From IMG/VR virus record IMGVR_UViG_2663763232_000006: a stretch of DNA of 14,419 nt. One strand, 5' to 3'. Under the pieces are notes generated by a model. It did no database searches and was not told the DNA's origin. It saw only the letters and a list, made by a program, of their open reading frames with translations. This document shows, piece by piece, positions 1 to 8,876 of this stretch. Source of the stretch: a virus (Duplodnaviria > Heunggongvirae > Uroviricota > Caudoviricetes). Every line of letters starts with the position of its first letter. The first letter of the stretch is position 1. The position numbers and the translations under genes are program-made.

Positions 1-18
1 CTCTGACTGAGAGTTTAC

Positions 19-642
19 TCACTTAGCCGCGTGTCCACTATTGCTGGGTAAGATCACAGTTATTGCTAGTAATGATATTTCGAAGCGCTCGATAGGTTCG
101 GACTTGATTTTAGATAGCTCGTTTTGCAAGCTCTCAATAACTTTTTTTGCCTCGGGGTTTTGAGGCATACGTACTTCAACTTTGTCAGCTCCAGGGCGAA
201 GTTCTATTATAACATTCCGCTTGTCGATCTGACGTAATGCAGTTTTAGACAGGTCTATTTCTTCATATTTGTATTCTACTGTAAGCGAGCCATCTTTTTT
301 AGCTACAATATTCAGGCTTTGACCTTTACTAGGGGAGCATGTTTTTTTTAGTGCTTCAGCAGCACTTTTTAATTCGGCCTGATTTGTTGAGGTTTGGAAG
401 CTCACACTAGTAGTGCTTTCCCTTGGGTCATATGTTTTGACCAGTTTTTTTATGTGTTCTAATTCATTAAATCCGTGAGGAAGTTTGGATATTTCCTCGA
501 TTAGTATTTCCTTGTCGAGTTCTGGTGATAAAAACACACCTCGATTCAACAATAATTCATGCAACTTTGCAGCGGTTATCCTTTTATGATGTAATGCATC
601 ATAAATATTTTTATCAGTTGCGAAATATAGTTTTTTAGCCAT
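19..642 (-). CDS. hypothetical protein, 207 aa; second gene of an AT-rich two-gene cargo operon (function unknown, candidate defence-system component)
   Basis: ATG start at 642-640 shares a base with the upstream gene's TAA stop (TAATG on minus strand). GGAG sits ~8 nt upstream. Lys/Glu-rich, no obvious transmembrane segment, no motif I can assign. AT-rich codon usage unlike the phage structural genes. Confidence 0.6.
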   Translation of the reverse strand: MAKKLYFATDKNIYDALHHKRITAAKLHELLLNRGVFLSPELDKEILIEEISKLPHGFNELEHIKKLVKTYDPRESTTSVSFQTSTNQAELKSAAEALKKTCSPSKGQSLNIVAKKDGSLTVEYKYEEIDLSKTALRQIDKRNVIIELRPGADKVEVRMPQNPEAKKVIESLQNELSKIKSEPIERFEISLLAITVILPSNSGHAAK

Positions 643-1643
643 TATCGTTGCTCCATGCCGATTTGTTCAAGATTATATTCAACAACAATTTTGTCTGTCT
701 TGTCGAAGTCAATTTTAAGAAAAAGTCTTTCATCCTCGCCTAAGAGCCAGTCTGTGCTGTATTTCTTTTTCGCTCTTTCAAAATGATGAATGGCATTTTC
801 ATTTGGGTGAATGTGACAATGGCGTAATACGATTGGTTTACCTTCGGTTAATATCTGATAAGTTGATAACATATCAAAGAAGTAAACGAATTCGTCTACT
901 GAATCCCCCGGTTGATTGTAATAAACAACATATCCCTCAGGGTTTTTATCCCTGAGCCAACTGAAAGCCTCATGCTTTATTATAATGTATGGTGATGTTA
1001 ATAATTCAATTGTTGCAGGTGTTGTCTGATTAATAGGGTGCTTTATTCTTGTTAGGGAAAGATCTGGATAATAATATGTGAACTTATCAGGTTGAGGAAG
1101 TTTGCCTGAACCAATTAACTTAGTTATGTCAGAAGATATGTTTATCAAATCTGATATTTTATAAGGGTCAAGCAAATGTAGTTTGATGTTTGGAGGGCAA
1201 TTTATAGATGAGTGATCTAATTTTTTTGTAATATTCTCATAGAAGTCTTTATCATATAAATTATCATGGTTATATAAGAATAATAACCCTCTTACGTTAT
1301 AACCTAAAGAATCATCATGAACATATTTCAATCGCCATTCTTCACTGACATTTGCACATTCGGTAGCTAAAGCAAGCGATGTTAAAGCTCCCTCGACTAT
1401 TTTTTTCCCAATAGTACCTTCTGCATAGCTTTTGAGGTCTGTGTTGAGATAGACCATTTCCTCCTCATATGGATCTATGTAGAAAAATACAACATCGCTT
1501 GGATGTGTTTTCTTGGAATGAGCCTCTTGGCAACAATCCCAATTCATGTCCGCTCTAGCGGCACGATCCCATTTGAACACTGAGAAAATATCATCAGAAA
1601 TCTTACCCGCGACTCGTTGTATAGCCGAAGTCTCTCCACCCAT
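642..1643 (-). CDS. hypothetical protein, 333 aa; first gene of the AT-rich two-gene cargo operon (function unknown, candidate defence-system effector)
   Basis: ATG at 1643-1641 preceded by AAGGAG about 10 nt upstream on the minus strand. Long ORF in an AT-rich region where spurious long ORFs are unlikely. No Walker A motif. His/Cys-rich cluster RHCHIHPNENAIHH near the C-terminus. No family assignable by eye. Confidence 0.65.
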   Translation of the reverse strand: MGGETSAIQRVAGKISDDIFSVFKWDRAARADMNWDCCQEAHSKKTHPSDVVFFYIDPYEEEMVYLNTDLKSYAEGTIGKKIVEGALTSLALATECANVSEEWRLKYVHDDSLGYNVRGLLFLYNHDNLYDKDFYENITKKLDHSSINCPPNIKLHLLDPYKISDLINISSDITKLIGSGKLPQPDKFTYYYPDLSLTRIKHPINQTTPATIELLTSPYIIIKHEAFSWLRDKNPEGYVVYYNQPGDSVDEFVYFFDMLSTYQILTEGKPIVLRHCHIHPNENAIHHFERAKKKYSTDWLLGEDERLFLKIDFDKTDKIVVEYNLEQIGMEQR

Positions 1644-1743
1644 TTCAATCTCGCTCCTTTACAATTGCTGTGGCAATCTGCCTGAAAATCCATCTGACTT
1701 GATGAGTAATCTAACCATATGGTTCGTATGCGTTTGTTGCATG

Positions 1744-1773
1744 ACTATAGCGCATGAAAATGAATGATCGCAA
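1744..1773 (-). promoter_or_regulatory. putative sigma70-like promoter for the two-gene cargo operon (-35 TTGCGA, 18-nt spacer, -10 TATAGT, read on minus strand)
   Basis: Hexamers read directly from the reverse complement of 1744-1773, about 100 nt upstream of the 333-aa ORF start. Not validated. Confidence 0.25.
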
Positions 1774-1793
1774 AAGGATCGTTTTTGCTCAGT

Positions 1794-1820
1794 CCCGCCA
1801 GTTCTGGCGGGCTTTTACTT
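1794..1820 (+). terminator. putative rho-independent terminator (stem CCCGCCA / TGGCGGG, short loop, followed by CTTTTACTT)
   Basis: Perfect 7-8 bp GC-rich inverted repeat followed by a T-rich tract on the plus strand. The minus-strand version is followed by an A-rich tract, so it is probably unidirectional. Confidence 0.4.
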
Positions 1821-1861
1821 ATGTCATGCAGGTGCATGAAAACCACTACACAAAGCGGGCA

Positions 1862-1880
1862 GGCGTGGCGGGGATACGAG
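1862..1880. other. putative cos site (cohesive-end region) of the P2-like phage
   Basis: GGCGTGGCGGGGATACGAG followed by GCGCGCGTAACGG resembles, from memory, the 19-nt cohesive ends of P2 and 186 (GGCG(A/T)GGCGGGGAAAGCA...) and the GCGCGC element after them. The position next to the 3' end of Q matches the P2 layout. Confidence 0.45.
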
Positions 1881-2059
1881 CGCGCGTAACGGGGCGAAAA
1901 AGTAATAATCCCGCGTATTGGAGAGATTGATTTGAAGTTTTCGGGATCGTGTTGCAATATATTGGCACACATTAAATGATGTTGATTTCATTGACTTAAT
2001 GTGGAAATGGAACTGTGAAACAACATACGTCAGCGATGTTACTTTCAAAAGGATAGACA

Positions 2060-2353
2060 ATGAAAACCATATACAACTATGACTTTCAATACTTACGTAA
2101 AGGGGATACGCGACCTCTTGATGATGGAGAGATTGTAAGATGTTCTTCGGAAGACAATCCACTCCTGATGCTTCCGAATGTTGGGGATTATGTCGACATT
2201 ACCAACAATGAAGACCGTGAGTCGTTTGGTGGGAAAGTGAAATCAAGGTTATTCAGATATACTCGAGTAAGTGAAGACCATGTTATTTGCAACATCAATA
2301 TTGTTGTTGAAGAGGTTGAAGACTCGGTGTGGGGCACACTTGTTAAAGAGTAA
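2060..2353 (+). CDS. hypothetical small protein, 97 aa (moron-like accessory gene between cos and Q)
   Basis: ATG at 2060 with AAGGA 6 nt upstream. AT-rich. Immediately followed by a strong hairpin terminator. Convergent with Q. No recognisable motif. Confidence 0.55.
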   Translation: MKTIYNYDFQYLRKGDTRPLDDGEIVRCSSEDNPLLMLPNVGDYVDITNNEDRESFGGKVKSRLFRYTRVSEDHVICNINIVVEEVEDSVWGTLVKE

Positions 2354-2355
2354 AC

Positions 2356-2383
2356 AAAGCGCCTGCAGTAGCAGGCGCTTTCT
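2356..2383. terminator. bidirectional rho-independent terminator between the 97-aa ORF (+) and portal gene Q (-)
   Basis: AAAGCGCCTGC-AGTA-GCAGGCGCTTT: perfect 8-bp GC stem extended by A/T pairs, flanked by T-rich sequence on both strands. Confidence 0.65.
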
Positions 2384-2398
2384 GAGCCTAATCTATAT

Positions 2399-3424
2399 CT
2401 AAAACATATAAGGTTCGAAGCGAATTATTTCTTCGCCCAGCCAGTCGTTAAGCTCCTGCAGTCGCTTCTGTAACGTCATCAGTTCGTTGCGGACAAAGAC
2501 GCGGCTGGCTTTTTCAACATCACCAAATCCCCCAACATTACTCGGCATGATTCCCATCATTTGTGGCGGTACACGGTGCGCAGCCATCATGTCATCGCGG
2601 CTGACATTTTTGATATTCAGAAACTCATCCTTCGCCGCGACTTCTGACAACGGGATGATCTGAAGCCCGTCCTTTTTGCCGTTAGGCGAGTACATGAACA
2701 GATTGCGGAAGTTACCTGGTCCTTTGGCACTTTTCATCGCATTGCGAAGGTTGTTCACGTCCTCCTGGTTCTGCGCGGCATCGGTCATGTACATGATGAA
2801 GCCTGCATGACTGCCGTTAATGTAATACTTACGGCGGAACAGCGTGGCGGACTCGTTGAGCAGGGCTGACGGAATGGCAGAAAGATAACCTGGCAGGCCG
2901 TAGATCTCCTGGTTGATGTCCGGTTCCATCAGATGAAAAATGCTGCCTTTCGTGAACTGATACGGCTGGGTTGTCATACCGTATTGCACAAACCAGTAGG
3001 TATCCAGGTCTAACCCGCGTCGGGTGTATTTTGCCAGAGCAGGCTCAAGGGCGATAACTTCACCGAAACGGTTCGTGCGTTTCTCCAGGTAGGCGTTACC
3101 AAAAACCAGATAGTCCTGTACAAAACGCGAAAAAGCCTGCTGGCTGAGCAGCGGGTGAGGGATGTAGGTGCTGGTCAGAATGTTGCACTTCACTGCAATC
3201 GGTGAGCTGTGATGCACGGCGGCGCGGAAAGTTCGCGCCAGTCCGTCGAAACTCACAGGCGGCTCATACCAACGATCCATCTGTACGCATTCCACATAGT
3301 CCAGCAGTTCGCGGCGGTCCAGAACAGGAACGGGATCACCGAAGCTGAATGCTTCGGCTGAAGTCTGGCCTTTATGCTGGATCTGTTTCGTCGACGCAGC
3401 GCGGTTCTTCTTACTCTTTCCCAT
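2399..3424 (-). CDS. Q: portal protein (P2 gpQ-like)
   Basis: ~341 aa with portal-like sequence, at the P2 Q position. ATG at 3424 overlaps the TGA stop of the upstream terminase gene. The ORF-track start at 3427 is a TTG one codon upstream, which I judge less likely. Confidence 0.93.
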   Translation of the reverse strand: MGKSKKNRAASTKQIQHKGQTSAEAFSFGDPVPVLDRRELLDYVECVQMDRWYEPPVSFDGLARTFRAAVHHSSPIAVKCNILTSTYIPHPLLSQQAFSRFVQDYLVFGNAYLEKRTNRFGEVIALEPALAKYTRRGLDLDTYWFVQYGMTTQPYQFTKGSIFHLMEPDINQEIYGLPGYLSAIPSALLNESATLFRRKYYINGSHAGFIMYMTDAAQNQEDVNNLRNAMKSAKGPGNFRNLFMYSPNGKKDGLQIIPLSEVAAKDEFLNIKNVSRDDMMAAHRVPPQMMGIMPSNVGGFGDVEKASRVFVRNELMTLQKRLQELNDWLGEEIIRFEPYMF

Positions 3425-5190
3425 CAAAAAATCTCCACAATATTGCTGGTATTGGCGGACTCGCCCTGCAGTGGTTCGTTAAACAGTGCGTGCATTGTTG
3501 CCCAGGCCAGATCGGCATGGCTGGCTTCTTCGCTGCGGCTGGCTTCATAGGTCGGGCGGTTGCCACTGGCAGTGGTAGCGCGACGGATTGCCATAAATGA
3601 CTGCGCAATGTCGGTGTGCCCGGCGTCAAACTCCAGACGGCGGTGGCTGATAATGTCGTAGGCCTTGAGTACCAGGGCGTTTTTAACGTTGGGGTTATAG
3701 ACAAACTCCCTGACGGCAGGAAAAAACGCTTTCACGTTCTCGTAAACCCCGTGACCGACGCCGGTCGAGTCGATACCGATATAGGTCACGTTATACTGTT
3801 CGGTCAGTTTTTTGATGGCGTCAGCCTGGGCGCGGAAGTCCATCCCGCGCCACTGGTGACGCTCAAGAATGCGGAACTTACCACCCGGCACGGCTGGCGG
3901 AGCCACCACCACGCATCCGGCACTGTCGCCGTTCTGCGTACCTTTTGCCGGGTCATAACCGATCCACACTTCGCGCCAGCCAAACGGGCGCAGCGCCAGT
4001 GCATGAAAGTCGGTCCAGACTTCCCAGCTGTCCACCATGCACGCCTGCAGCTCGCTGAGCGGGAACACGGACGCGAGATCGTCCACGAACTCACACATCA
4101 GCAGGTTCTGGTATTCGTCCGGGCTGTACTCCATGCGCAACTGGTCGAGGTCGAACAGGTTACAGCCGCCGCGCACCGCATCTTCCACGGTGACTATCTG
4201 GCGGTATTGCCCGTCTGCGCACAGCAGGCCGGGGGCCAGATTGCTGTGGGACAGGTCGATGTCCACCTTGTCAGCTTTGTTGCGCCCACGGTTGAACAGC
4301 GCACCGGACCAGAACGGATAAGCACTGTGGGTCAGACTGGATGGTGTGGAAAAATAGGTCTGCCGCCATTTCTTGTGAATAGCCATACCGGAAGCCACTT
4401 TGCGCAGCTCCTGGAATTTCGGTATCCAGAAATATTCATCCAGATACAGGTTGCCGTGGTAACTCTGGGCCGTGCGGGCATTGGTGCCGAGGAAGTAAAG
4501 CGTGGCCCCGTTGGGAAGCACCATCGGATCGCCTTTCAGCTCCACTTCCACTTCTTTGGCGAAGTCGATGATGTACTGCTTAAAGACGTGGGCCTGTGCC
4601 TTGCTGGCGGAAAGGAAAATCTGGTTACGTCCGGTAAGCAGAGCGTCAATCAGGGCTTCACGGGCAAAGTAAAAGGTCGCGCCGATCTGGCGTGATTTCA
4701 GCAGGTTGCGGATGCGGTTGGTTTTTCCGGCTTCCCACCAGTGGCGCTGGTAGTTGAACATGGAGGAATGGAAGATTTCTTCCAGCTTCTCAATCTGCTC
4801 ATCGGTGAAAACATTCTTTTCCGGCTGACGGCGCGGGCCTTTGTTGCGGTTGGCAACGTTAGGGTTTAAGTCGGCTTCGTTGCCGCCATTGTTAAACTTG
4901 CCGATCCGCGCGTGGCGTTCCGACTGGCGCGCCAGCAGGTCAATCTCTTTGAAATCTTTCCCTTCTTTGTGCTCCTTCATAATGAGCTGGCAGTAGCGTG
5001 CGGCGGTGGTGAGCTGCATCTGATCCAGCGGCCCATAGTCACCCCACTTGTCGCGTTTTTTCCAGCTGTGAACGGTTGCAACTTTCTCGCCCAGCATTTC
5101 AGCAATGCGGGCTACGCGGTATCCCTGAAAGTAGAGCAGCATGGCCTGCCGACGGGGATCGAGATCTGCGGGTGTCAGTGTGGTGTTCAT
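3424..5190 (-). CDS. P: terminase large (ATPase) subunit (P2 gpP-like)
   Basis: 588 aa, matching the size and position of P2 gpP. ATG at 5190. Translationally coupled to Q downstream. Confidence 0.93.
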   Translation of the reverse strand: MNTTLTPADLDPRRQAMLLYFQGYRVARIAEMLGEKVATVHSWKKRDKWGDYGPLDQMQLTTAARYCQLIMKEHKEGKDFKEIDLLARQSERHARIGKFNNGGNEADLNPNVANRNKGPRRQPEKNVFTDEQIEKLEEIFHSSMFNYQRHWWEAGKTNRIRNLLKSRQIGATFYFAREALIDALLTGRNQIFLSASKAQAHVFKQYIIDFAKEVEVELKGDPMVLPNGATLYFLGTNARTAQSYHGNLYLDEYFWIPKFQELRKVASGMAIHKKWRQTYFSTPSSLTHSAYPFWSGALFNRGRNKADKVDIDLSHSNLAPGLLCADGQYRQIVTVEDAVRGGCNLFDLDQLRMEYSPDEYQNLLMCEFVDDLASVFPLSELQACMVDSWEVWTDFHALALRPFGWREVWIGYDPAKGTQNGDSAGCVVVAPPAVPGGKFRILERHQWRGMDFRAQADAIKKLTEQYNVTYIGIDSTGVGHGVYENVKAFFPAVREFVYNPNVKNALVLKAYDIISHRRLEFDAGHTDIAQSFMAIRRATTASGNRPTYEASRSEEASHADLAWATMHALFNEPLQGESANTSNIVEIF

Positions 5191-6181: not shown

Positions 6182-7240
6182 ATGAAGAAGAATACCCGCT
6201 TTGCTTTTAACGCTTACCTGCAGCAACTGGCACGTCTGAACGGTGTGGCAGTTGAAGAACTGTCCAGCAAGTTCACTGTAGAGCCGTCTGTGCAGCAGAC
6301 GCTGGAAGACCAGATCCAGCAGTCCGCCGCTTTCCTGACGCTGATTAACGTCACGCCAGTGACTGAGCAGTCCGGTCAGCTGCTGGGGCTGGGTGTTGGC
6401 AGCACCATTGCCGGAACCACTGACACCACCGCGAAAGAGCGTGAACCTGTCGATCCGACGCTGATGGTCGATGTGGAATACAAATGCGAGCAGACCAACT
6501 TTGACACGGTGCTGACCTACGCGAAGCTGGACCTGTGGGCGAAGTTTCAGGATTTCCAGGTGCGTATCCGTGACGCCATCGTGAAACGTCAGGCACTGGA
6601 CCGCATCATGATCGGCTTTAACGGCGTGAAGCGTGCGAAAACCTCCAACCGTAGTGAAAACCCGCTGCTGCAGGATGTGAACAAAGGCTGGCTGCAGAAA
6701 ATCCGTGAGGATGCACCGGATCACGTCATGGGCAGCACCACCACGGGCGGTGAAACCACTCCGGGTGCGGTGAAAGTCGGGAAAGGTGGCGAATATGCCA
6801 ACCTGGACGCTGTGGTGATGGATGCCGTCAATGAGCTTATCGACGTGGTTTACCAGGACGATGACGATCTGGTGGTGATTTGCGGTCGTGAACTGTTGTC
6901 TGACAAGTATTTCCCGCTGGTCAACAAAGAGCAGGAAAACAGTGAAAAACTGGCTGCCGATATGATCATCAGCCAGAAACGCATGGGTGGCCTGCAGGCC
7001 GTGCGTGCGCCGTTCTTCCCGCCGAATGCGCTGCTGATCACCCGTCTGGATAACCTGTCCATCTACTGGCAGGAAGACACCCGCCGCCGTTCAGTTATCG
7101 ACAACCCGAAACGTGACCGGATTGAAAACTTTGAATCCGTTAATGAAGCCTATGTGGTTGAGGACTACCGCTGCGCCGCACTGGTGGAAAACATCCAGAT
7201 TGGTGATTTCAGCGCCGCCGCAGCCGAAACCGGAGCGTAA
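6182..7240 (+). CDS. N: major capsid protein (P2 gpN-like)
   Basis: 352 aa. N-terminal region (TRFAFNAYL...KFTVEPSVQQTL) resembles P2 gpN as I recall it. Conserved position after O. Confidence 0.93.
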   Translation: MKKNTRFAFNAYLQQLARLNGVAVEELSSKFTVEPSVQQTLEDQIQQSAAFLTLINVTPVTEQSGQLLGLGVGSTIAGTTDTTAKEREPVDPTLMVDVEYKCEQTNFDTVLTYAKLDLWAKFQDFQVRIRDAIVKRQALDRIMIGFNGVKRAKTSNRSENPLLQDVNKGWLQKIREDAPDHVMGSTTTGGETTPGAVKVGKGGEYANLDAVVMDAVNELIDVVYQDDDDLVVICGRELLSDKYFPLVNKEQENSEKLAADMIISQKRMGGLQAVRAPFFPPNALLITRLDNLSIYWQEDTRRRSVIDNPKRDRIENFESVNEAYVVEDYRCAALVENIQIGDFSAAAAETGA

Positions 7241-7243
7241 TCC

Positions 7244-7894
7244 ATGAGCCTGAGTCCCGCACGGCAGCATCGCCTGCGCGTTCAGGCTGAACAGGCCGCC
7301 CGCGAGGGCGGCAGTGTTCGCCACGCATCGGGCTATGACCTGATGCTGCTGCAACTGGCGGAAGACCGCCGCCGTCTCAAGGGCGTTCAGTCCACGGTCA
7401 AAAAAGCGGAAATCAAGGTGGAGCTGCTGCCGAAGTACGCCGCCTGGGCAGAGGGTGTCCTGGCTGCCGGAGGCGCTCAACAGGATGACGTGCTGATGTA
7501 CGTGATGCTGTGGCGCATTGATGCCGGAGATTATGCCGGGGCGCTGGAGATCGGGCGTCATGCCCTGCGTCATGGCTGGGTGATGCCGCTGGGTAACCGC
7601 AACGTGCAGACCGTGCTGGCAGAGGAAATGGCAGACGCGGCGCAGAGCGCAATGCTTGCCGCCACCGGCTTTGATGCCGATCTGTTGCTGCAGACGCTGG
7701 AGCTGACAGACGGTCTGGATATGCCGGACCAGTCACGGGCGCGTCTGCATAAAGCGATTGGCGCTGTCCTGAGTGAAAGCAACCCGGCTTCCGCCCTTAA
7801 TCATCTCAACCATGCGTTACAGCTCGATCCCCGCTGTGGCGTGAAAAAAGACAAACAGCAGCTGGAGCGCAGACTGCGCAATGACAGCCGCTGA
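7244..7894 (+). CDS. M: terminase small (endonuclease) subunit (P2 gpM-like)
   Basis: 216 aa. Contains GAQQDDVLMYVMLWRIDAGDYAGALEIGRHAL, similar to P2 gpM as I recall it. GGAG 8 nt upstream of the ATG. Confidence 0.9.
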   Translation: MSLSPARQHRLRVQAEQAAREGGSVRHASGYDLMLLQLAEDRRRLKGVQSTVKKAEIKVELLPKYAAWAEGVLAAGGAQQDDVLMYVMLWRIDAGDYAGALEIGRHALRHGWVMPLGNRNVQTVLAEEMADAAQSAMLAATGFDADLLLQTLELTDGLDMPDQSRARLHKAIGAVLSESNPASALNHLNHALQLDPRCGVKKDKQQLERRLRNDSR

Positions 7895-7989
7895 CAGAAC
7901 GTGCCCCCGCGCACGGGCGGCACGGGGTGGCGAAAGGCACTGCCACATCAAAACCCCGTCCACCGCCCTCTATTTCAGGAGAAAGCAGC

Positions 7990-8454
7990 ATGAAGTTTGT
8001 TGCGCCAGAACAGGCACCGGAACAGGCGGAAATCATCAGGAATACGCCGTTCTGGCCTGATGTGGACCTGTCGGAGTTTCGCAGCGTGATGCGCACTGAC
8101 GGCACGGTGACGCAGCCGCGTTTAAAGCAGGTTGCGCTGTCGGCAATTTCGGAGGTCAACGCAGAGCTGTATGAGTTTCGCAGACGCCAGCAGATGCTGG
8201 GGTATGCCTCGCTGGCAGAGGTTCCGGCGGAACAGCTGGACGGCAAAAGTGAGCGCATTCAGCACTATTTCAACGCGGTTTACTGCTGGGCACGCGCCAT
8301 GCTCAACGAACGTTACCAGGACTATGACGCCACGGCGTCCGGTGTGAAGCGGGGCGAGGAACTGGCGGAAGCAAGCGGTGATTTGTGGCGTGACGCACGC
8401 TGGGCCATCAGCCGGGTGCAGGATGCGCCGCACTGCACAGTGGAGCTTATCTGA
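7990..8454 (+). CDS. L: head completion / stabilisation protein (P2 gpL-like)
   Basis: ATG at 7990 with AGGAG 8 nt upstream. The ORF-track GTG at 7927 adds a Pro/Ser-rich extension without an RBS. Stop TGA overlaps the start of X (TGATG). Confidence 0.8.
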   Translation: MKFVAPEQAPEQAEIIRNTPFWPDVDLSEFRSVMRTDGTVTQPRLKQVALSAISEVNAELYEFRRRQQMLGYASLAEVPAEQLDGKSERIQHYFNAVYCWARAMLNERYQDYDATASGVKRGEELAEASGDLWRDARWAISRVQDAPHCTVELI

Positions 8455-8657
8455 TGAAAGTGCGTGCGCATCAGTATGACACGGTGGACGCGCTTTGCTG
8501 GCGTCATTACGGGCGCACGCAGGGTGTCACGGAGCAGGTACTGAAGGCAAATCCGGGGCTTGCCGAATACGGCCCCTTTTTACCTCACGGGCTGCAGGTG
8601 GAGCTGCCGGACATTCCGACCACCACCACCGTGCAGACCGTCCAGCTATGGGACTGA
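8454..8657 (+). CDS. X: tail protein X (P2 gpX-like, LysM-like domain)
   Basis: 67 aa, the same length as P2 gpX, with similar sequence as I recall it (...YGRTQGVTEQVLKANPGLAE...LPHG...VELPD). Confidence 0.88.
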   Translation: MKVRAHQYDTVDALCWRHYGRTQGVTEQVLKANPGLAEYGPFLPHGLQVELPDIPTTTTVQTVQLWD

Positions 8658-8660
8658 ATT

Positions 8661-8876
8661 ATGACGCTTGAGCGAATCAGCGCCTTTATCACGTATTGCA
8701 TCGCCGTCGTGCTGGCCTGGCTGGGCGATTTGTCCATCAAGGATGCCTCAACGCTGGGCGGCCTGATGATTGGTGTGCTGATGCTGGCTATCAACTGGTA
8801 CTACAAACACAAAGCCTACCAGCTTCTGCGCGACGGGCAGATCTCGCGGGAGGACTATGAATCCATCAATCGTTAA
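8661..8876 (+). CDS. holin, 71 aa with two predicted transmembrane domains (class II / pinholin-like)
   Basis: Two hydrophobic segments (ISAFITYCIAVVLAWLG and LGGLMIGVLMLAINWYY) and a charged C-terminus. Sits directly upstream of, and overlapping, the endolysin gene. Shorter than P2 gpY (93 aa). Confidence 0.7.
   Translation: MTLERISAFITYCIAVVLAWLGDLSIKDASTLGGLMIGVLMLAINWYYKHKAYQLLRDGQISREDYESINR

Follow-up and report, generated by a model that had tools for sequence, protein, structure and literature searches.

A probably IS3-inactivated copy of the three-gene 3HP defence system, with predicted distant relatives of GAPS4, at the cos side of a P2-like hotspot

Introduction

The stretch of Caudoviricetes DNA analysed here (IMG/VR record IMGVR_UViG_2663763232_000006, 14,419 nucleotides at its full length, hereafter the window) begins with two minus-strand open reading frames (ORFs) of 333 aa (642..1643) and 207 aa (19..642). 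The question raised by this locus is whether the two ORFs constitute a new anti-phage system or belong to one already described. An initial annotation, made from the sequence alone, had taken them for a novel, uncharacterised two-gene operon placed where phage P2 carries old and tin, coupled by a TAATG stop/start overlap and AT-rich compared with the phage core. Direct reading of the sequence confirmed the two ORFs, their overlap (640..644, minus strand) and their base composition, with a GC content of 33-40% over bases 1-1750 of the window vs. 54-62% in the phage late region. The same overlap occurs between the first two genes of intact loci (6758-7759 and 7759-8838). The best explanation of the locus as a whole, with a probability of roughly 0.85, is that it holds the promoter-proximal part of the 3HP defence system, that this copy is inactivated by IS3, and that the intact system is GAPS4-like.

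Results

Identity of the two ORFs

Judged from sequence identity and profile matches, the pair in bases 1-1643 of the window is the first two genes of the known 3HP defence system and not a new one. The 333-aa protein is identical in 333/333 residues to protein 1 of plasmid pFR109, and also to WP_000508501. The three-gene P2-hotspot system on this plasmid, described as 'hp + hp + hp', protected E. coli against phage P1 (Rousset et al. 2022, PMC9122126). The system is named Rst_3HP by DefenseFinder and is represented in PADLOC by the models Hp1, Hp2 and Hp3. The Hp1 model (PDLC03004) matches the 333-aa protein with 792 bits over residues 1-333 of 333, and the Hp2 model (PDLC03005) matches the 207-aa ORF with 428 bits, covering only profile positions 1-195 of 359. 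The locus thus falls into an already characterised family, and the claim of novelty has to be given up. The proposal of anti-phage cargo, on the other hand, was sound.

Comparisons with intact loci showed what a complete copy looks like. Locus L001 has full-length matches for Hp1, Hp2 and Hp3 alike. In the intact locus, the second and third genes encode 359 aa and 227 aa, respectively, and bases 57-2400 of the window are identical to this locus at 2344/2344 positions. The 3HP of pFR109 has the same upstream region, including cos, and the same P2-hotspot position as the locus described here. However, the validated system has three intact genes, whereas IS3 interrupts the present hp2 after codon 195 and no hp3 is contained in the window. 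The reported protection is narrow, being limited to P1 out of eight phages (Rousset et al. 2022, PMC9122126). The same study is not reported to have included single-gene deletions of 3HP (Rousset et al. 2022, PMC9122126), and no 3HP experiments other than plaque assays were found in the literature searched.

The predicted nuclease Hp1

The hp1 gene (642..1643, minus strand) is intact, and its 333-aa product is predicted to be a PD-(D/E)xK nuclease (Pfam PF26115, PDDEXK_GAPS4) from the PADLOC match, the identity with the pFR109 protein, and the PGAP and Pfam annotations. PGAP names it 'PD-(D/E)XK nuclease domain-containing protein', and precomputed Pfam annotations assign PF26115 to P0001, a protein of identical sequence, as well as to each of the 120 homologues listed. 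The codons of the predicted catalytic core, H47-P48-S49-D50 ... D69-L70-K71, were located by conservation at 1431..1505 (minus strand). Across 23 homologues with identities as low as 35%, residues E4, H47, P48, D50, D69 and K71 do not vary, and H47, P48, D50, D69 and K71 are at least 90% conserved among 87 sequences. The earlier statement that neither protein carries a hallmark was therefore wrong for the 333-aa protein, which has this conserved motif. A local Pfam-A scan gave no significant match for either protein, the copy used apparently being without PF26115 and PF26110. Sequence-profile searches of the PDB with the Hp1, Hp2 and Hp3 alignments likewise gave nothing significant.

Relationship to GAPS4

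Profile comparisons suggest a distant, collinear relationship of Hp1 to GAPS4a and of Hp2 to GAPS4b. In GAPS4, a PD-(D/E)xK nuclease of ~330 aa is followed by a GAPS4b_N partner of ~360 aa; 3HP has the same order and a similar combined mass (79.1 kDa for Hp1 plus Hp2 vs. 80.4 kDa per GAPS4 a+b pair). PF26115 and PF26110 are common to the two systems, the latter (GAPS4b_N) being borne by Hp2 homologues. The NCBIfam model GapS4a is matched by 7/23 members of the Hp1 family (best E 1.2e-10) and the model GapS4b by 10/52 members of the Hp2 family (best E 1.3e-6). Residues 14-314 of the E. coli Hp2 align with positions 8-329 of 355 in the GapS4b profile at 23.5 bits, and an NCBIfam search with Hp1 and Hp3 gave no match. 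The GapS4a/b scores of the 3HP proteins, 23-36 bits or less, lie far under the curated cut-offs of 270 bits (GapS4a) and 300 bits (GapS4b), so that these proteins are not members of the GapS4a or GapS4b subfamilies.

The GAPS4 complex has the composition a2b2, and its DNase is triggered by DNA breaks (Mahata et al., bioRxiv 10.1101/2025.09.07.674715). Each GAPS4 gene alone gives no protection, and the GAPS4b pair forms a ring (Mahata et al., bioRxiv 10.1101/2025.09.07.674715). The catalytic motifs differ, reading HPxD...DxK in Hp1 vs. HGxD...SxK in GAPS4a, and D-to-A substitutions in the HGxD-SxK motif of GAPS4a lead to loss of defence (Mahata et al., bioRxiv 10.1101/2025.09.07.674715). GAPS4 consists of two genes (a and b, or fused) and needs no third protein, whereas hp3 is present in 76/76 judgeable related loci. 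In addition, GAPS4-RiKo protects against many phages, whereas P1 is the only reported target of 3HP. The GAPS4 preprint (bioRxiv 10.1101/2025.09.07.674715) does not mention 3HP. Its authors draw a parallel between GAPS4 and Shedu and Hachiman (bioRxiv 10.1101/2025.09.07.674715), defence nucleases that respond to DNA ends or to aberrant DNA. The logic proposed below for 3HP is the same, with a PD-(D/E)xK effector that would become active once DNA ends or damage are sensed. However, the sensor proteins of Shedu and Hachiman differ from those of 3HP, and no homology between them was detected.

Predicted folds and variability of Hp2 and Hp3

The predicted monomers of Hp2 and Hp3 appear to resemble RdgC, a DNA-encircling ring protein, most closely. 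In the Hp2 model, residues 1-195 form a helical N-domain and a first alpha/beta module, and residues 196-359 form half of the RdgC-like module. A Foldseek search with the Hp2 model gave weak support, placing CENP-N/Chl4 at the top (E 2.4e-4, TM ~0.25), and RdgC was not among the best 50 matches. RdgC forms ring dimers with DNA in the pore, and IML3-CHL4, a heterodimer on DNA, has the same fold as RdgC. RdgC, lambda RexA and IML3-CHL4 (CENP-L/N) make up a DNA-binding fold group without sequence similarity to the 3HP proteins. RdgC and RexA have no nuclease partner, unlike Hp2 and Hp3, which are found beside Hp1. The best 150 matches of an Hp2 profile search were all of the 3HP type. Hp3 has a pI of 9.0 and is highly variable, with 2 positions conserved at 90% or above vs. 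63 in Hp1. Comparisons of Hp2 with Hp3 by hhalign, using both shallow and broad alignments, showed no similarity, and a recent origin of hp3 by duplication of hp2 was rejected.

These properties bear on another reading of the system, in which 3HP is a real defence without being GAPS4-like: for example, Hp2 or Hp3 might recognise a specific phage (P1) protein instead of DNA ends, or Hp1 might be kept inactive by Hp2/Hp3 in the manner of a toxin-antitoxin pair and released upon shut-off of host expression. We consider this unlikely, while granting that the P1-only range compared with the broad range of GAPS4-RiKo, the extreme variability of Hp3, as expected of a component that contacts phage factors, and the lack of a GAPS4 counterpart of Hp3 all speak for it. 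Against it stand the apparent collinear homology of Hp1 and Hp2 with both GAPS4 components, and the basic character of Hp3 together with the DNA-clamp-type folds predicted for Hp2 and Hp3. Lone GAPS4 genes also gave no protection, a result that concerns protection and not toxicity. A GAPS4-like intact system is the reading retained here.

IS3 insertion and truncated hp2

Followed towards base 1, the match between the window and intact 3HP loci ends at base 57. Genome matches identify the remaining bases (1..56, minus strand) as the left terminal end of IS3, clipped by the window edge; the minus strand reads TGATCTTACCCAGC... from base 56. This 56-base segment has 14,664 matching places across 3,955 E. 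coli genomes. In locus L002, a CDS annotated as 'IS3-like element IS3 family transposase' begins 10 nt past the 56-base match on the same strand. The TG-starting terminal inverted repeat of IS3 is seen here, whereas the transposase CDS is seen in L002 and lies off-window in the present locus. The element has the same orientation as the operon.

The second ORF (19..642, minus strand, 207 aa) is a fusion of truncated hp2 with IS3 (hp2'::IS3), as indicated by the PADLOC profile match over positions 1-195 and by a 195-aa prefix in common with protein 2 of pFR109. Its first 195 codons (bases 58-642) are those of native hp2. The junction falls within codon 196 (bases 55-57), and from this codon onward the ORF encodes 12 non-native residues (VILPSNSGHAAK*), the stop codon also being read from the IS3 terminal repeat. 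The 207-aa length, which had been taken for that of the gene, is thus not a natural end and results from an IS3-made truncation of the 359-aa Hp2, in which 164 of the 359 residues (196-359) are missing. The GAPS4b_N domain lies within the retained residues 1-195. The exact pattern of the IS3/hp2 junction occurs neither in genome_contigs nor in viral_contigs, nor in any complete E. coli genome, and no database record of the exact truncated 207-aa protein was found. Hp3 is absent from the window, which ends 56 bp into IS3, and is present in intact loci. The suspicion that more of the system lies past the window edge agrees with these intact loci, which have the full 359-aa hp2 and hp3.

Since the second 'gene' is an IS3 truncation, this copy of 3HP is probably non-functional in defence. 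Its Hp2 is without the C-terminal half of the ring-type module, and hp3, if still there, would lie ~1.26 kb of IS3 away from the operon promoter. A contrary reading is that the interrupted copy still works, with Hp1 and residues 1-195 of Hp2 acting as an active or deregulated nuclease and hp3 possibly expressed by read-through or from an outward promoter of IS3. Such activity is improbable. It would be compatible with an hp1 sequence unchanged from that of the functional allele, with the retention of both parts assigned above to residues 1-195 of the Hp2 model, and with the co-orientation of IS3 and the operon. However, GAPS4 needs both genes and its GAPS4b pair makes the ring, whereas removal of residues 196-359 takes away half of the RdgC-like module of Hp2. 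The keeping of Hp2 and Hp3 in all 76 judgeable relatives argues that all three proteins are needed, and an unrestrained DNase would be counter-selected. Inactivation by IS3 is thus the preferred interpretation of this copy.

Hotspot setting and distribution

The P2-family cos site (GGCGTGGCGGGGATACGAG) has one exact match in the window (1862..1880, plus strand) and bounds the hotspot towards the phage core. Its context, AAGCGGGCAGGCGTGGCGGGG..., is as in the P4-like cos regions of Rousset Table S2A. Beyond cos lie a 97-aa ORF (2060-2353, plus strand), the portal gene Q (2399..3427, minus strand) and the terminase gene P (3424..5190, minus strand). The cos site proposed in the initial annotation is therefore real, but it does not directly adjoin Q, as the 97-aa ORF intervenes. 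A terminator-like GC-rich hairpin (CCCGCCAG-TTCT-GGCGGG, 1794..1811) separates cos from the hp1 promoter region, and the region has 7 terminator-like sites vs. 1.8 expected. A consensus scan placed a candidate sigma-70-like promoter (TTGCGA-18-TATAGT, 1744..1773, minus strand) upstream of hp1, which is weak evidence; promoter-like sites in the region are no commoner than in shuffled sequence. The candidate falls within the pFR109 fragment whose native promoter drove defence. An Rfam search found no RNA families in the window, a repeat scan of bases 1-2450 gave nothing beyond short matches of chance size, and a PHROGs search matched 'unknown function' families only.

The slot is the P2-like hotspot, bordered by cos and gene A, of a P2-family (Peduoviridae) prophage, and the window matches L001, with Q and P beyond cos. 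In intact loci, hp1-hp2-hp3 is followed by a DinI-like gene and gpA. Another E. coli prophage with the same flanks has a gene for a 630-aa P-loop NTPase in place of 3HP, and this alternative cargo bears out the assignment to a variable, old/tin-type defence hotspot. Old and Tin of phage P2 use the same slot, bounded by gene A/orf91 and cos, and share with 3HP a role in inter-phage exclusion. However, their proteins are unrelated to the 3HP proteins, and the PADLOC matches here are to Hp1 and Hp2 only.

3HP occurs in 18/5,426 complete E. coli genomes, and the 359-aa Hp2 together with Hp3 in 16. The system is IS-disrupted in 2/18 of these genomes too. The inactivations seen in E. coli comprise IS3 here, two IS1 copies, ISKpn26 and one frameshift allele. 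The order Hp1-Hp2-Hp3 is kept in 76/76 judgeable related loci of other species, and the 3HP family invariably includes the third gene. Some relatives are plasmid-borne, others lie in islands flanked by an integrase, and a P4-like satellite context also occurs.

Practically no room is left for an intact, undescribed two-gene anti-phage system of 333-aa and 207-aa proteins. That reading draws on the coupling of the two ORFs in a defence hotspot and on the lack of a significant match for either protein in the local Pfam-A copy. Yet the 3HP models of PADLOC match both proteins, Hp1 is the protein of the validated construct, the 207-aa ORF ends within IS3, and related loci carry three genes wherever this can be judged, as do the 16 E. 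coli genomes with the 359-aa form and Hp3. The description as a two-gene operon fails too, the natural unit having three genes in 76/76 judgeable related loci. That the two ORFs are simply conserved genes of the P2 core or of lysogeny, as their prophage position with cos on one side and the replication gene A on the other might suggest, was rejected as exceedingly improbable, given the restriction to 18 genomes, the other cargo with the same flanks, the low GC content relative to the late region, the relatives in plasmids, islands and a satellite context, and the defence experimentally shown for 3HP (Rousset et al. 2022, PMC9122126).

Discussion

The preferred reading, an IS3-inactivated part of a GAPS4-like 3HP system, allows a mechanism for the intact system to be inferred by carrying over that of its distant relative GAPS4. 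Hp1 would be the effector, a PD-(D/E)xK DNase by homology. Hp2 would be its GAPS4b-like partner, in which the N-terminal helical domain docks the nuclease and the remainder, with its RdgC-like fold, may form a ring or clamp encircling DNA. Hp3, a second protein of predicted RdgC-like fold, basic and fast-evolving, could complete or modulate the DNA-sensing clamp or set the specificity of the trigger. As in GAPS4, the signal perceived by the complex would be DNA ends or breaks associated with phages, or else DNA that is linear or undergoing recombination, like that of P1. Once triggered, it would degrade DNA non-selectively, and the infection would be aborted.

Tentatively, 3HP may be a three-component branch of GAPS4, in which a hetero-oligomeric clamp of Hp2 and Hp3, unrelated in sequence, senses DNA ends or intermediates of recombination and licenses Hp1 and in which the repeated inactivation reflects a cost in autoimmunity and DNA-damage sensitivity; this is a possibility that we regard as less likely than not. 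Costs of both kinds have been shown for GAPS4 (Mahata et al., bioRxiv 10.1101/2025.09.07.674715).

The locus belongs under known, probably inactivated defence systems and not among discovery candidates; a PADLOC or DefenseFinder run would flag Hp1 and Hp2. For the family, 3HP, so far described as having 'no predicted domain', gains a testable mechanism, that of a GAPS4-like break-sensing DNase acting with two proteins of predicted RdgC-like fold. The three independent IS-mediated knock-outs fit a costly carriage of self-targeting nucleases.

Identity of the operon

Two minus-strand ORFs of 333 aa (hp1, 642..1643) and 207 aa (truncated hp2, 19..642) are present in the six-frame ORF list, and the minus-strand sequence reads TAATG at 640-644, where the stop codon of hp1 overlaps the start codon of hp2. 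The GC content is 33-40% over window 1-1750 vs. 54-62% over the phage late genes, and the P2-family cos sequence GGCGTGGCGGGGATACGAG is located at 1862-1880. Thus, the initial annotation correctly described two coupled AT-rich ORFs beyond cos. To the right of cos lie a 97-aa ORF (2060-2353, plus strand) and the portal gene Q (2399-3427, minus strand), whose stop codon is directly followed by a strong terminator-like hairpin (2356-2381, minus strand; an 11-bp stem with seven GC pairs). Terminase P and the late genes O, N, M, L and onward are located beyond Q, and the late region shares ~97% identity with peduoviruses of E. coli and Klebsiella.

Each window protein has a single match in PADLOC-DB. 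The 333-aa protein matches Hp1 (PDLC03004) with 792 bits over positions 1-333 of 333, and the 207-aa protein matches Hp2 (PDLC03005) with 428 bits, confined to profile positions 1-195 of 359. In a megablast search of 5,426 complete E. coli genomes, P2-like prophage loci in five genomes were 99.8-100% identical to window 57-2400. In E. coli 08-00022, the intact locus (L001) comprises three overlapping genes in the same direction that encode 333, 359 and 227 aa. All three proteins are full-length matches to PADLOC Hp1, Hp2 and Hp3, and a DinI-like gene, a small ORF and replication gene A lie downstream. Scripted comparison showed that window 57-2400 and L001 are equal at 2344/2344 bases and that their Hp1 proteins do not differ. 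Rousset et al. 2022 (PMC9122126) cloned eight further P2-hotspot systems; Table S2A of that work lists plasmid pFR109 as 'hp + hp + hp' (P2 locus, 3 genes, source E. coli E1114) and gives the cloned DNA and three protein sequences. The sequences of pFR109 proteins 1, 2 and 3 equal those of the window 333-aa protein and of L001 Hp2 and Hp3, respectively. The cloned fragment starts with the sequence at about window base 2066 and therefore spans the cos and native promoter region present here. DefenseFinder names the system Rst_3HP and describes it as mostly prophage-encoded; no later mechanistic paper on 3HP was found in the literature searched. The PADLOC matches and the identity to pFR109 protein 1 contradict the earlier description of the genes as uncharacterised: 3HP is an already characterised family rather than a new system, and the feature in the window is real but represents a known, experimentally validated system that is incomplete here.

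Variability of the hotspot

As anticipated, the hotspot varies across related P2-like prophages. Between the same flanks (portal, 97-aa ORF, DinI-like gene and gpA), a gene for a 630-aa P-loop NTPase takes the place of 3HP in E. coli 2014C-3011. Prophages with different small genes in the Q-cos interval also carry the 3HP cassette, as does Klebsiella phage ST437-OXA245phi4.1. The 97-aa ORF matches PHROG 12676 (unknown function), with zero matches in Pfam, PADLOC and NCBIfam, and is found in several P2-like prophages regardless of the hotspot cargo. Other prophages have in its place either an LPO_1073/Vpar_1526-family gene together with a small ORF or a gene annotated 'SinR', suggesting that the Q side of cos holds a second small variable slot.

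Two records with an E. coli plasmid annotation (L012, NZ_CP148585.1, 55,571 bp; NZ_CP148400.1, 55,211 bp) contain a complete-looking P2-like late region and intact 3HP; they could represent phage DNA in an extrachromosomal or concatemeric form, or else an artefact of assembly. A 3HP homologue of Photorhabdus stackebrandtii (L010, 5001-7772; Hp1 identity 61%) neighbours an integrase, an AlpA-like regulator and a primase with Toprim/D5_N domains, a P4-like satellite context and not a P2-like phage. The 13-kb records of Pseudomonas phages 54-4 (OR621021.1) and 99-2 (OR621024.1) encode Hp1 relatives of 30-36% identity annotated 'nuclease related protein', and may be satellites that carry the system.

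Relationship of Hp1 and Hp2 to GAPS4

An Hp1 alignment of 23 homologues down to 35% identity showed invariant E4, H47, P48, D50, D69, K71, S72 and Y73, which appear to form a PD-(D/E)xK core (D ... D-x-K) and reach at least 90% conservation across a set of 87 sequences. Precomputed Pfam annotation places PF26115 (PDDEXK_GAPS4) on all Hp1 homologues among the matches listed and PF26110 (GAPS4b_N) on Hp2 homologues, and PGAP names the identical protein WP_000508501 'PD-(D/E)XK nuclease domain-containing protein'. Our Pfam-A scan, using a copy that seems older than PF26115 and PF26110, gave no match for Hp1 and sub-threshold noise for Hp2. Residues 14-314 of E. coli Hp2 align to positions 8-329 of the 355-position NCBIfam GapS4b model with only 23.5 bits vs. 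a cut-off of 300. GapS4a matches occur in 7/23 Hp1-type proteins (best E 1.2e-10) and GapS4b matches in 10/52 Hp2-type proteins (best E 1.3e-6), and no other family recurs among these two sets. The shared Pfam domains and the weak but recurrent matches argue that Hp1 and Hp2 are distant collinear homologues of GAPS4a and GAPS4b, outside the curated subfamilies.

The GAPS4 complex is a 164-kDa a2b2 heterotetramer that requires both genes and the catalytic Asp of the N-terminal HGxD-SxK PD-(D/E)xK motif; the GAPS4b pair is predicted to form a ring, with GAPS4a docking on the GAPS4b helical domains (bioRxiv 10.1101/2025.09.07.674715). Once DNA breaks appear, as with nalidixic acid, GAPS4 degrades phage and host DNA non-selectively and is therefore abortive and a liability for the host (same preprint). 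By analogy, Hp1 of intact 3HP would act as a PD-(D/E)xK nuclease with Hp2 as its GAPS4b-like partner. The combined mass of Hp1 and Hp2 is 79.1 kDa, compared with 80.4 kDa for the GAPS4 a+b pair. However, GAPS4 has two genes, whereas 3HP has Hp3 in every judgeable locus.

Conservation of the three-gene unit

When one genome per species was scanned by pattern plus tblastn, 233 genomes had a relative of Hp1, and 80 loci were taken from these. Hp2 and Hp3 HMMs showed all three genes, ordered and tightly packed, in 72/80 loci, and a broader HMM recovered a divergent Hp3 in four more. With the four loci cut by contig ends left out, Hp1-Hp2-Hp3 is kept in 76/76 judgeable loci. Thus, the operon is not the two-gene unit first proposed, and this retention argues that Hp3 is integral to the 3HP branch. 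Most hosts belong to the Gamma- and Betaproteobacteria, and some metagenome-assembled genomes add other phyla; the settings of the operon include plasmids, islands flanked by an integrase and a P4-like satellite context. In the family alignments from these loci, conservation drops steeply along the operon although Hp3 is always present (63, 19 and only 2 positions at least 90% conserved in Hp1, Hp2 and Hp3, respectively), pointing to a fast-evolving Hp3.

State of the window copy and decay of 3HP

Window 1-56 matches thousands of sites in the 5,426 complete E. coli genomes (megablast), and at one of these a CDS annotated 'IS3-like element IS3 family transposase' starts 10 nt past the match. 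The 207-aa ORF comprises the first 195 residues of Hp2 followed by VILPSNSGHAAK and a stop read from IS3, and lacks the other 164 residues of Hp2. Residue 195 falls, in the Hp2 model, in the stretch that joins a short strand (185-188) to a helix (197-209). The truncated protein retains the helical domain at the N terminus together with the first alpha/beta module and loses residues 196-359. The IS3 has the same orientation as the operon, and hp3, if still present, sits past about 1.26 kb of IS. Because the GAPS4 genes protect only together and all three 3HP genes are universally retained, the window copy is, by analogy, most likely inactive. The window hp1 does not differ from the functional allele by any substitution, indicating that the insertion is probably recent.

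The 3HP operon is present in 18 of the 5,426 genomes, including two independent IS disruptions. In L016 (NZ_CP024275.1, 3758-6313), hp1 is interrupted by two IS1 copies; in L017 (NZ_LT883142.1, 2952-4848), an IS5-like ISKpn26 accompanies a deletion of hp1 and the first ~77 codons of hp2. Degraded alleles are also common in the public protein collection, in which P0013 and P0123 are relatives of window 642-1643 and 19-642. The intact Hp1 and Hp2 clusters have 534 and 296 members; a frameshifted Hp1 form (228 native residues plus 5) has 152 member sequences and an N-terminally truncated 280-aa Hp2 form has 235, as raw counts that may include clonal copies and show only that 3HP decay is not rare. 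Decay would fit the cost described for GAPS4, and could equally reflect ordinary prophage erosion.

Predicted folds of Hp2 and Hp3

AlphaFold2 models from homologue alignments were confident (mean pLDDT of 82.4 for Hp2 and 91.4 for Hp3). Both models appear to resemble RdgC best, which forms ring-shaped dimers with DNA bound in a basic pore; IML3, CHL4, CENP-L/N and TBP-like domains come next in both fold-match lists, and lambda RexA is also in that of Hp3. The fold is common to RdgC, the prophage exclusion protein RexA and the DNA-contacting IML3-CHL4 heterodimer. Foldseek with the Hp2 model ranked CENP-N/Chl4 first at a weak TM-score of ~0.25, with RdgC absent from the top 50. Sequence-profile comparisons showed zero similarity between Hp2 and Hp3, and between either profile and PDB chains. 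Hp3 is basic (pI 9.0) and Hp1 and Hp2 are acidic. The predicted RdgC-like folds fit the ring predicted for GAPS4b, and RdgC is unmentioned in the GAPS4 preprint (bioRxiv 10.1101/2025.09.07.674715). The residual value of this locus is a mechanistic lead for 3HP, which may combine a GAPS4-like nuclease with two proteins of predicted RdgC-like fold.
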